A stretch of 64,000 bases of DNA from Anaerolineales bacterium (GTDB lineage: Bacteria; Chloroflexota; Anaerolineae; Anaerolineales; UBA11579): the NCBI GenBank assembly GCA_026129335.1, contig JAHCIH010000003.1:20534-84533 (forward strand), written 5' to 3'. Below, piece by piece: positions 22,182 through 25,100 of this stretch (its first letter is position 1; every line of letters begins with the position of its first letter). A program made the position numbers and the translations under genes. The notes below the pieces were generated by a model, which did not search any database, had not been told where the DNA came from, and was given only the letters and a program-made list of their open reading frames with translations.

Positions 22182-25100
22182 TTAAACCAATTCTTGTGGG
22201 CTCAGGCTCTCAAAGCCTTTGTTCATCCCCAGGCGGATCAGGTTCTGTACCTCATGGATGTCCTGTACTTCCAGCATGGCCCAGCGGCCGTGCTGGCCCA
22301 GGTTGTTGACCGCCGGCACCCAATACTCTCGGGCGGTCTTGACTTTCAGGGCTTTCTTGTCGTCTTTCTTGCCGGTCACTTCGATGATTAGGTTTAGCTT
22401 TTGCTTGTCCGGCATCTCCAGCACAGCGATAAAATCCGGATAGTAGGAGAGCGAATTGCCCTGGTGTTCGTAGGGGATGACGAATTGCAGGCGCTCGTTC
22501 TTCACATAAGCCAGCACTTCCGGCATCTGCTCCAGGCGCTTGGCTACACCTTGCTCCCACATCTCCGTGTCGGCCACCACATAGTTGACGTGACTCTTCA
22601 CCGTCTCGTGCACCTCTTTGGTTGTCAGGAAGTCCACATACCGGGTGGAGCCGAGCGTATCGTAGGGAGCGAGGATGGGCCGCAGTTTCTTCTCTCCGTC
22701 CTCGCTCAGGTGGTCGGCCACAATCGCCTGCTGAATTTTGGTCAGTGCCCCGTTGAAGTATTCGCCGATGGACAAATAACCGATGACCATGCGGTCTTTC
22801 AAGACCACATGGGTTTGCACATATTGCTCAACGATAAGCAAGCTGCGGGTACAACCAGATTTTCGGGTCCCCCGTCTGCCGTAATAGCGACTGAGCAGGG
22901 CTTCCGTAAGGTGGGTGATGACGGTGCCTTCGCAGCGTTCTTTGATTTTTCCAAATCCTCTTTATATTTCTTCCGCCCAGCACTACTTCGGTGGGCTCGT
23001 TTTCAATGGCGTCCCATGGTCTCCTCGGTGAATTTTGCGGAGAGATTGCCTTCGTTGAGCTCGTAGCGATAGCCGAACACGCGCGGGAAGGTGATTTCAT
23101 ATTGCGAGCGACTTTCCAGAGCGTGGACGCGGTGGTGTACTTTGGGCGCTATCGGTGGCGGGTTGCCCTCGAAGCGCAGGAAGTTGAAGGGCACGCCGTA
23201 TACCTCGGCATACTCCTCATTCAGCAGGCCGTTCTCGTTCACGGTGTAGTCCACGCGGCGCAGGGCGCGGCCCACCACCTGCTCGCAGAGCAACTGCGTG
23301 GAGAAGGCGCGCACGCCGAGGATATGGGTGACCGTGTTCACATCCCAGCCTTCAGTAAGCATGGAGACAGACACGACGCACTTAATGTTCTCGCCCAACT
23401 TGCCGGGCTTGCCCACCGTGTTCATCACTTCGCGCAGCAAGTCTTCGTCTGAAGGCTCGTCGCGGCCGGGGAAGCGTTTGCGATACTCTTTGCGATATTC
23501 CTCAATTTCGCGCGCAAAGACTTTCTTGAAATTGGCGTCAATCCTCTCGCCGCTTTCCAGCTGGTGCGAATCAATGATCAGCGTATTGGGCTTGTCGAAG
23601 AAATGGACGCCATCTTCGTTCCTGAAGATGGGCAATTTGCCGGGAACGATCTTGCCAGTAGTGGGGTGCTCATACCCTGCGATCCAGCGATAGACAAGCT
23701 CGGAAACCGTGGTGTTGTTGCACACCACGATCATGACCGGGGGCAGGGCGTGAGAGCTAGCTACATGGCTGGCTGGCTGGCTGGCTGGCTGGCTGGCTGG
23801 CTGGCTGGCTGGCTGGCTGGCTGGCTGGCTGGCTGGCTGGCTGGCTGGCTGGCTGGCTGGCTACTTCATATTGACGAAAATTCTTTTCGTAATTCCCGTA
23901 GAGTGACAGCAAGGCCGCGGACAGCTTGGTTGGCAGGTCAACTTTGGAAAGGTCGTACTCGCGCCCGGTACGGCGGCCTTTCTTGGGGAGCTCGTCGCGC
24001 ACATGCTCCCACAGGTTGCGGAATTCGGGCATCTCCTCCTGCCGGATCGTGTCGGATTCCACTGGCAGGCGGGGTATCTTCACGATCCCGGCTTCCAGTG
24101 CATCCAGCAGCGAAAAATCATAGGTCACCCAAGGAAACATGGTGCCTTCTGGATAGCCGGAGCCGCGCAGGAAGTAGGGTGTCGCGGAGAGATCTATAAC
24201 AGCATTGATCTCGGTTTTTTCTGCCAGGGCTTTGATGCCGTTTATCCAGACACGAGCTTCTGCGTTGTTCTCGTCGGCTTCTTTGCGGTCGTCGCCTGCC
24301 AGCTTTTCCTCGCTGGGGCGGGCCTGGTAGCAGTGATGCGCCTCATCGTTGATGACCAGCACTCTGGATTTGCCGGCAATCGACTTGAAGGCACGGTTAA
24401 CCATTGCGGAGGGCGATTCTTTCACTACCTGTTCGTCTATCAGCCCGGTGGACTTGAGCACGGCCCCCATTTTGATCCTCGGATTGCTGCGCAGTTCCAG
24501 TTGGTGGTAGTTGGTGATCAGGATCTTTGCAGCCTGCAGCTGCTCCATATCGTGATGGGAGATAATGTCGCGTTCACGATAATAATTCTTTTGCTCGCTG
24601 GGTTGCAGCACGCGCAAGCGGTCGCGGATGGTGATGCCGGGCGTAATGATGACAAAGGTATCCGTGAAACGAGTGTCCGCGGGATAGCGCACCTTGTTCA
24701 AGGTGTTGTAGGCAATCATCATCGCCATCACCACGGTCTTGCCGCTGCCGGTTGCCATTTTGAAGGCCAGGCGGTACAAGCCGGGGTTGGCTTCTTGGTT
24801 CGCTTTCGTGAGTGCGGCGATTGCCCAGACCTCCCCGGCTTTTTCAGCCACCTCATTGATATAGATAAGGGTTTCCAGTGCTTCAATCTGGCAGAAGAAC
24901 AGCTTGTTCTCGCGGCTTTCGTCCCGCCAATACAAGAGCAGTTCTCGCGAAGTGCGCGTAATGCCAGGATACTCGGCTGCACGCCAGGCGCTTACTTTCC
25001 CCCGGACTTTGTTGATAAATTCATTTTCTTCCTGGAGTTCTTCGCCAAAGGCACCCTCTGCATCGGCGAGTTCCAATTGTTGTTTGCGGTTCCTGGCACG

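Follow-up and report, generated by a model that had tools for sequence, protein, structure and literature searches.

Phase variation by slippage of AGCC repeats is best described for modA, the phasevarion gene of Haemophilus influenzae and pathogenic Neisseria, in which AGCC(n) switching has been demonstrated experimentally: ON and OFF lengths were isolated and confirmed by Western blot (PMC10783040). For restriction subunits, simple sequence repeats (SSRs) have been catalogued as phase-variable candidates in the hsdR HP0464 and MboIIR HP1366 genes of Helicobacter pylori (PMC4209511, Table 1), and ON/OFF variation via a poly-tract in hsdR has been suggested for Mycoplasma agalactiae (PMC9465063). 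An intact mod gene beside a frameshifted res gene is a documented end state of restriction-modification (R-M) systems of Type III in H. influenzae and Neisseria (PMC1976455; PMC3874151), and SSR-bearing mod genes in environmental species have already been published (PMC5909438). Here we describe a stretch of 64,000 nucleotides (nt) from an Anaerolineales bacterium of the Chloroflexota (GenBank assembly GCA_026129335.1, contig JAHCIH010000003.1, positions 20,534 to 84,533 of the forward strand; hereafter the window), in which a perfect (AGCC)24 tract interrupts a res gene next to an intact mod gene. With moderate confidence, we regard this res as a recently inactivated pseudogene whose tract is a frameshift switch, either a former one or one that was never selected, beside a surviving solitary Mod.

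The window tract resembles that of modA in its AGCC unit and in the proposed slipped-strand frameshifting within an open reading frame (ORF) of a Type III-like R-M system, and its length is of the same order, since our scan of public genomes recovered modA-type loci, mod-like genes whose 5' ends carry 12-43 units. The initial annotation of this DNA had called AGCC tracts the classic mod switch, as is documented for modA (PMC10783040). The window tract, however, lies in res, in mid-gene (codon 457 of ~990) and in the loop between two lobes of the protein, whereas the modA tract lies near the 5' end; the window system is of the BPTD_3080 type with res upstream of mod, its host is a free-living-type Anaerolineales, and the gene that carries the tract is otherwise broken. 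With HP0464 and MboIIR HP1366 it shares an SSR in the gene of a restriction or motor subunit, not of a methyltransferase, where ON/OFF variation would affect restriction alone. The tracts of H. pylori and Mycoplasma are mononucleotide tracts in Type I/II genes of small-genome, host-adapted bacteria, whereas that of the window has 24 tetranucleotide units and lies in the Type III-like res of a member of the Chloroflexota. The frameshifted res genes of H. influenzae and Neisseria also stand beside an intact methyltransferase gene and are also truncated ahead of the endonuclease domain, but there mod has the repeat and res has ordinary mutations, whereas in the window mod is repeat-free and res has both the repeat and a cluster of insertions and deletions (indels). 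The coordinates of these features are collected in Table 1.

The tract consists of 24 uninterrupted GGCT units on the + strand (23767-23862; regular-expression search of the raw sequence), that is, (AGCC)24 on the - strand that encodes res, and Tandem Repeats Finder delimits it at 23766-23862 with a period of 4, 24.2 copies, 100% matches and zero indels. A chance occurrence is of no concern: the tract is the sole long microsatellite of the window, beside which just one (CGCT)3 and one T8 pass permissive SSR thresholds. The count of N in the window is 0. A published survey accepted SSRs of at least 3 units where the unit is at least 3 nt long (PMC5909438); 24 perfect tetranucleotide units inside an ORF are long enough for slippage. 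The N-terminal ORF of res (25229-23757, 490 amino acids (aa), - strand) translates the tract as (ASQP)8 and then ends as C-S-stop at TAG 23759-23757, while the homologous continuation (HVASSHALPPVMIVVCNNT...) uses another frame, which is open across the tract and ends at TGA 23005-23003. The initial annotation had stated the same from the sequence alone: 24 perfect units at these positions, read as (ASQP)8 in a first Res ORF that stops at this TAG, with a continuation open through the tract in the neighbouring frame. Raw sequence, Tandem Repeats Finder and the - strand translation agree with it on each point. Two other candidate roles of this region were rejected. The + strand ORF 23564-24199, which encodes GWLA repeats, is antisense to conserved res coding sequence, and the terminator-like matches that would make the tract a hairpin or terminator are only the G-T wobble self-pairing of the repeat. 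The DNA folds only weakly, with z scores of -4.0 (+ strand) and +2.5 (coding strand).

We rebuilt res in silico with 20-28 AGCC units to follow the reading frame. As the unit is 4 nt long, gain or loss of a unit cycles the downstream frame, and read-through and stop alternate along the simulated series: both res ORFs become one at 20, 23 and 26 units (n = 2 mod 3), and all remaining lengths terminate just past the tract, at TAG 23763-23761 or at TAG 23759-23757. The net insertion relative to orthologous loci (see below) is 91 nt, or 3 x 30 + 1, so that 24 units are out of frame and 23 units in frame. The earlier calculation that 23 or 26 units would fuse the ORFs is thus reproduced, and 20 units would fuse them too. 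The present 24 units are an OFF length, and the tract has the anatomy of a slipped-strand frameshift switch.

The site of the tract was compared with that in two orthologous loci, L001 and L002. Both read TAC CAG GAT GCG CTG GAA AGC AAC CTC CCT GTT TTG CCT CCA GTA ATG (YQ-DALESNLPV-LPPVM) at this point, with neither a repeat nor an obvious proto-repeat in the DNA alignment; the window carries 91 extra nt there, and both flanks of the tract are colinear with the same orthologous gene. On the NCBIfam model NF046055 the tract falls exactly between positions 455 and 456, and no model position is lost. Among the 120 best homologues, the segment from LYGNY to PPVMIVVCNN is 17-20 aa long in 117, and a tandem peptide repeat in this segment was found in none. 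In the AlphaFold model of the orthologue P0002 (mean pLDDT 68) the site takes up the end of helix 434-459 and the loop 460-468; the strand that follows, 469-473, is the first one of the second RecA-like lobe. The tract is therefore a lineage-specific insertion in the loop between two RecA-like lobes and not a conserved linker. An alignment to res orthologues had been proposed as a check of whether the tract is an insertion between the RecA-like domains; the DNA alignment, the homologue linkers and the P0002 model all place it so. A conserved in-frame ASQP linker was rejected: not one of the 120 homologues has it, and at its present length the tract is out of frame.

The gene itself survives as three fragments, which align one after another to NF046055. 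Fragment 1 covers positions 2-455 (563 bits), matches Pfam ResIII (2.5e-14) and is 85% identical in aa to P0002 over residues 1-457 in a tblastn search; fragment 2, also seen by tblastn with P0002, covers positions 456-696 (317 bits); fragment 3 covers positions 772-966 (187 bits) and matches Pfam RE_endonuc PF19778 (5.4e-5). The closest intact homologues, P0001 (990 aa, from a Logan assembly) and P0002 (988 aa, from an Anaerolineales metagenome-assembled genome (MAG)), both show ~85% aa identity. P0002 scores 1125 bits against NF046055, the "BPTD_3080 family restriction endonuclease" (cut-off 800), and 17 bits against PRK15483, the canonical Type III endonuclease (cut-off 564). On these profile scores we assign the window res, as a pseudogene, to the NF046055 BPTD_3080 family, a name for which a literature search returned no papers. 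No sequence homologue of Res was found in the PDB, and the best Foldseek matches of the P0002 AlphaFold model are the EcoR124I HsdR motor subunit and other superfamily 2 (SF2) translocases. As in Type III systems, Res combines an SF2 helicase/ATPase module with a C-terminal PD-(D/E)xK endonuclease (Pfam, motifs, Foldseek); the mod-then-res order and the Res family of canonical Type III systems were not found. Because the order is res then mod and the family is BPTD_3080, we class the system, on its sequence, as Type III-like and not as canonical EcoP15I-like. Of the initial designation as a type III res, the restriction-subunit part stands (Pfam ResIII; three fragments on NF046055), while the type is better given as Type III-like. 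In the same family, many homologues (P0124, P0168 and others) are fragments of 200-420 aa on long contigs, including those of Anaerolineales MAGs, which suggests that pseudogenisation is common in it.

Downstream of the tract the gene is broken again. The DNA alignment to L001 and L002 places six frameshifting indels (+1 at 23016, +2 at 22967-22966, -1 at 22946, -5 at 22881-22880, +1 at 22858 and -2 at 22841) and an in-frame 12-nt deletion at 22984, and the homologous frame accordingly hops six times between 23016 and 22841 in a tblastn search with P0002 and in three-frame translation. These frameshifts lie 740-925 nt downstream of the tract, and therefore the tract alone cannot turn this res copy on: ON lengths give a product of 736-744 aa that ends at TGA 23005-23003, without the nuclease domain. 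This bears out the caveat of the initial annotation that downstream frameshifts block a full-length Res. The damage seems young. The window res is 73.5% identical to 28 outgroup proteins, compared with 73.3% and 72.9% for two intact orthologues; the ratio of nonsynonymous to synonymous substitution rates (dN/dS) does not exceed 0.07 in any of the three fragments, synonymous sites being saturated; and none of the Walker A, DEAH, motif VI and PD...EVTGK motifs has been lost. Because the rest of the gene looks fully conserved by outgroup identity, dN/dS and catalytic motifs, res was inactivated recently relative to its divergence from known relatives.

Long AGCC tracts are not peculiar to this locus. 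A scan for (AGCC)>=10 with one genome per species returned at least 120 stretches (loci L003-L122). Among the stretches listed are many from Streptomyces and Kitasatospora, and others from Frankia, Vicinamibacterales, Gemmatimonadota, Anaerolineae, Saccharibacteria, Gilliamella, Neisseria and Haemophilus; the longest of them has 59 units, and several genomes, namely a Poriferihabitaceae MAG, a Metamycoplasmataceae MAG and Gilliamella, hold multiple such tracts. The initial view that such loci are not commonly described in high-GC environmental-type genomes is weakened by this distribution, with at least 120 stretches that include Streptomyces, Frankia, Vicinamibacterales and Anaerolineae. We ran Pfam on the 191 ORF segments that touch tracts of (AGCC)>=8 in the 120 listed loci. 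Of the classes that could be identified, DNA methyltransferase and R-M families come up most often (N6_N4_Mtase 9, TypeIII_RM_meth 6, Eco57I 2, N6_Mtase 1, MmeI_Mtase 1, Type_ISP_C 1); a few ORFs match reverse transcriptase, glycosyltransferase or PAS/GAF sensor domains, and most have no Pfam match. A tblastn search with Mod recovered about nine mod-like genes with 5' tracts in these loci. None of the 191 segments matched ResIII or a helicase or res-type family, and a tblastn search of the 120 loci with the window's Res family gave zero matches. An AGCC tract inside a res gene is therefore rare in this sample.

We also searched for the same locus with other tract lengths. The exact window Mod and Res N-fragment proteins, looked up for other contigs with different tract lengths, are neither on record. 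The upstream flank plus two units had 0 matches in 241 million metagenome records, and a degenerate pattern of (AGCC)4, 15-45 nt and a coding motif for VMIVVCNN, of which the window itself served as the positive control, had 0 matches in metagenome and viral contigs. A junction-protein query that included the ASQP repeat returned repeat-free fragments only, its retrieval probably being swamped by unrelated ASQP-rich proteins, and no tract-bearing homologue of the window's Res family was found in the protein collection searched. The nearest host relative, locus L123 (UvrB 95%), ends inside radC, short of the R-M genes.

In the mechanism that we propose, the tract is a tetranucleotide microsatellite that arose in this lineage and is presumably hypermutable, and slipped-strand mispairing during replication would add or remove units and cycle the downstream frame. 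Lengths of n = 2 mod 3 would be read through, adding ~30 residues of ASQP-type linker, and other lengths would stop at one of the two TAGs directly after the tract, 24 units being OFF. In this sequence the switch has lost control of a working gene, as six further frameshifts deprive the product of its nuclease domain whatever the number of units, while mod is intact. The tract presumably slips at a high rate in the window organism, and we infer that it acted as an ON/OFF switch of restriction before the other lesions arose. In favour of such an origin are the presence of a sole notable microsatellite in an R-M gene, its position in a permissive loop, and the closure of both OFF frames at once.

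The tract may instead be a neutral microsatellite: res would have been inactivated first by other lesions, and a short proto-repeat would then have expanded unconstrained without ever being a switch. Lesions apart from the tract do indeed break the gene, the tract itself is confined to this lineage, and many of the (AGCC)>=10 tracts elsewhere touch ORFs without a recognisable function and need not be switches. On the other hand, the orthologues have no proto-repeat at the site, and the lack of any other notable microsatellite in the window speaks against a general tendency of this genome to expand repeats. The tract also lies in a gene of the class that is linked to such tracts more often than any other, and it occupies a permissive loop between the lobes, with stops in both OFF frames after it. 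Furthermore, the intact parts of res give no signal of relaxed selection, which would leave little time for 24 perfect units to grow. We consider neutral expansion unlikely, if by no means negligible.

Our reading of the locus as a frameshift switch in a recently inactivated res has several points against it. The gene is a pseudogene at any tract length, so that selection for switching cannot now act on Res, and an ON length does not give a complete product, because six frameshifts precede the endonuclease domain. No other member of the window's Res family with a tract was found, and recurrent selection for it thus leaves no trace. Neutral expansion would account equally well for a perfect tract of 24 units in a dead gene. 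The copy number depends on the assembly, and an error of one unit would swap ON and OFF. Finally, the clustering of six indels within 175 bp is far from the expectation for uniform decay; it may stem from error-prone repair in patches, from gene conversion by a degraded copy or from an error of the local consensus. Since the product of an ON length proved incomplete when tested, we describe the locus here as an R-M gene that bears a repeat, and do not class it among demonstrated contingency loci. The OFF state named in the initial annotation thus holds in so far as 24 units are out of frame, but its reading as a contingency locus needs a gene that can be ON, and this res is broken at any length.

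An artefact of assembly or consensus is another candidate explanation: the tract would exist but its length would have been mis-called, or the frameshift cluster would be a local error, and res would be intact and possibly ON. A perfect repeat of 96 nt is hard to size by short or noisy long reads, six indels in 175 bp with none elsewhere in res are odd for natural decay (the remaining ~2.8 kb has zero indels or stops and no excess amino-acid change), and the intact segments look fully conserved. The flanks of the tract, however, are colinear with one orthologous gene without a chimeric join, the window has no N, and other long genes in it, SecA (1346 aa), DnaE (1039 aa), UvrB and UvrC, are uninterrupted. 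The indels are of 1, 2 and 5 nt and mostly outside homopolymers, and the sizes +2, -5 and -2 and their contexts are atypical of homopolymer errors. Given that the other long genes are unbroken and that homopolymer slippage fits only a minority of the indels, general noise of the assembly is an unlikely source of the extra frameshifts, and we think it very improbable that an artefact accounts for the locus.

The neighbouring mod gene matches Pfam N6_N4_Mtase (1.8e-28) and PADLOC MTase_III PDLC03632 (1.9e-211). When aligned with orthologues of 819 and 825 aa, Mod is 80-98% identical at its ends and 26-60% identical in its centre (columns ~200-450), the target-recognition region there being hypervariable (26-34% identical to the orthologues). 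It has thus the N6/N4 class and the central variable target-recognition region of a Type III modification subunit, and the alignment suggests that target-recognition domains were swapped and that the three Mod enzymes probably methylate different motifs. A phasevarion has its SSR in the mod ORF or promoter; no microsatellite was found in mod (19700-22171) or in the 10-nt spacer between res and mod.

The order res then mod is common to the window, L001 and L002, which brings in a further explanation, namely that the tract still varies in the population as a live switch and acts on the operon: termination within res would alter mod expression through polarity or lost translational coupling and modulate methylation besides or instead of restriction. 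The order and the short spacer are kept in L001 and L002, mod is intact with a diverged target-recognition region, and promoter-like sites upstream of mod are no more frequent than in shuffles, although the scan used an E. coli-type consensus, which is uninformative for Chloroflexota. This explanation is purely inferential, and translation of res would end ~830 nt (ON) or ~1590 nt (OFF) before mod in either state. We regard an operon-level switch as improbable and keep to a recently inactivated res beside a solitary Mod.

Table 1 Coordinates of the R-M genes, the tract and neighbouring genes in the window
Feature	Position	Strand	Remarks
PIN-domain gene	17735-18115		low-GC islet
SocA/Panacea antitoxin	18708-19286		low-GC islet
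137-aa unannotated partner of SocA/Panacea antitoxin	19290-19703		low-GC islet
mod, intact; 823-aa predicted N6/N4 DNA methyltransferase	19700..22171	-	DPPY and DPTCGSGTT motifs; starts 10 nt after the res stop
res fragment 3	22182..22841	-	C-terminal PD-(D/E)xK-type endonuclease domain (YYPDF...IIEVTGKK); in the frame of fragment 1, unreachable by translation
Six frameshifting indels (+1, +2, -1, -5, +1, -2) and an in-frame 12-nt deletion	22841..23016	-	helicase-nuclease linker of res
res fragment 2	23003..23764	-	second RecA-like lobe (PPVMIVVCNN, LTEGWD, QVVGRALRR); frame differs from fragment 1; ends at TGA 23005-23003
Two TAG stops, 23763-23761 and 23759-23757	23757..23763	-	3' of the tract; each closes one of the two OFF frames (sequence, simulated lengths)
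res fragment 1, 490 aa	23757..25229	-	first RecA-like lobe, Walker A (MATGSGKT), DEAH (NDEAHH), then (ASQP)8 and C-S-stop
(AGCC)24 tract, written (GGCT)24 on +	23767..23862	-	lineage-specific insertion in the inter-lobe linker of res

The window is part of a chromosome and carries SecA, DnaE, UvrB and UvrC intact; its UvrB is 84-86% identical to Anaerolineales bacterium proteins and 95% identical to that of one Logan contig. The R-M genes lie in a low-GC (guanine plus cytosine) stretch, 17000-25300 (46-58% GC), between flanks of 60-70% GC, and together with the toxin-antitoxin-type genes of Table 1 this stretch has the look of a defence islet gained by horizontal transfer. At both orthologous loci, res and mod adjoin Fic, integrase/Rep or CBASS-like genes instead.

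Several other elements were seen in and around the islet. A palindrome of 14+14 nt without spacer and with one mismatch (93% complementary) lies at 25245-25272 (CCACTAAACCTGAC/GTTAGGTTTAGTGG), between res and radC and 16-43 nt upstream of the res start codon; it could be the operator of a controller protein, a hairpin of the 5' untranslated region or the radC terminator. Intergenic tandem-heptamer elements (TCAGCAG, TAGCTGC, AGTCAAC, GAGATTG), some of them arranged as inverted repeats, occur at 16814-16847, 18453-18505, 25306-25335, 56447-56512 and 58681-58746. One pair of these, 18475-18504 and 25306-25335 (30 nt, 83% complementary), exactly brackets the module of toxin-antitoxin, mod and res, and may mark the ends of the module or simply be a genome-wide hairpin element. 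Farther away, the ~1.8 kb of 45422-47194 are without a long ORF, with a dip to 43% GC at 46-47 kb, and adjoin the only tRNA in the window, tRNA-Lys CTT (47083-47155); this stretch may be what is left of an integration site.

Long AGCC tracts extend to Streptomyces, Frankia, Acidobacteriota and candidate phyla, a far wider spread than one would expect from the literature on Haemophilus and Neisseria. If the tract described here switches, it would represent repeat-driven control of restriction alone, and not of methylation, in an environmental lineage of Chloroflexota, and would extend contingency loci to the res subunit and to bacteria other than host-adapted pathogens. The most far-reaching version, to which we give only a small chance, holds that the restriction subunit of a free-living member of the Chloroflexota contains a switch still live at the population level, which would toggle restriction, leave methyltransferase specificity untouched and possibly tune Mod by polarity, the frameshift cluster then being strain-specific or a consensus error; if true, it would point to bet-hedging between defence and DNA uptake outside the host-adapted pathogens from which such switches are known. 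As the sequence stands, the locus documents the decay of an R-M system, in which the nuclease gene was lost to a microsatellite and a patch of indels and the methyltransferase survives as a solitary enzyme.

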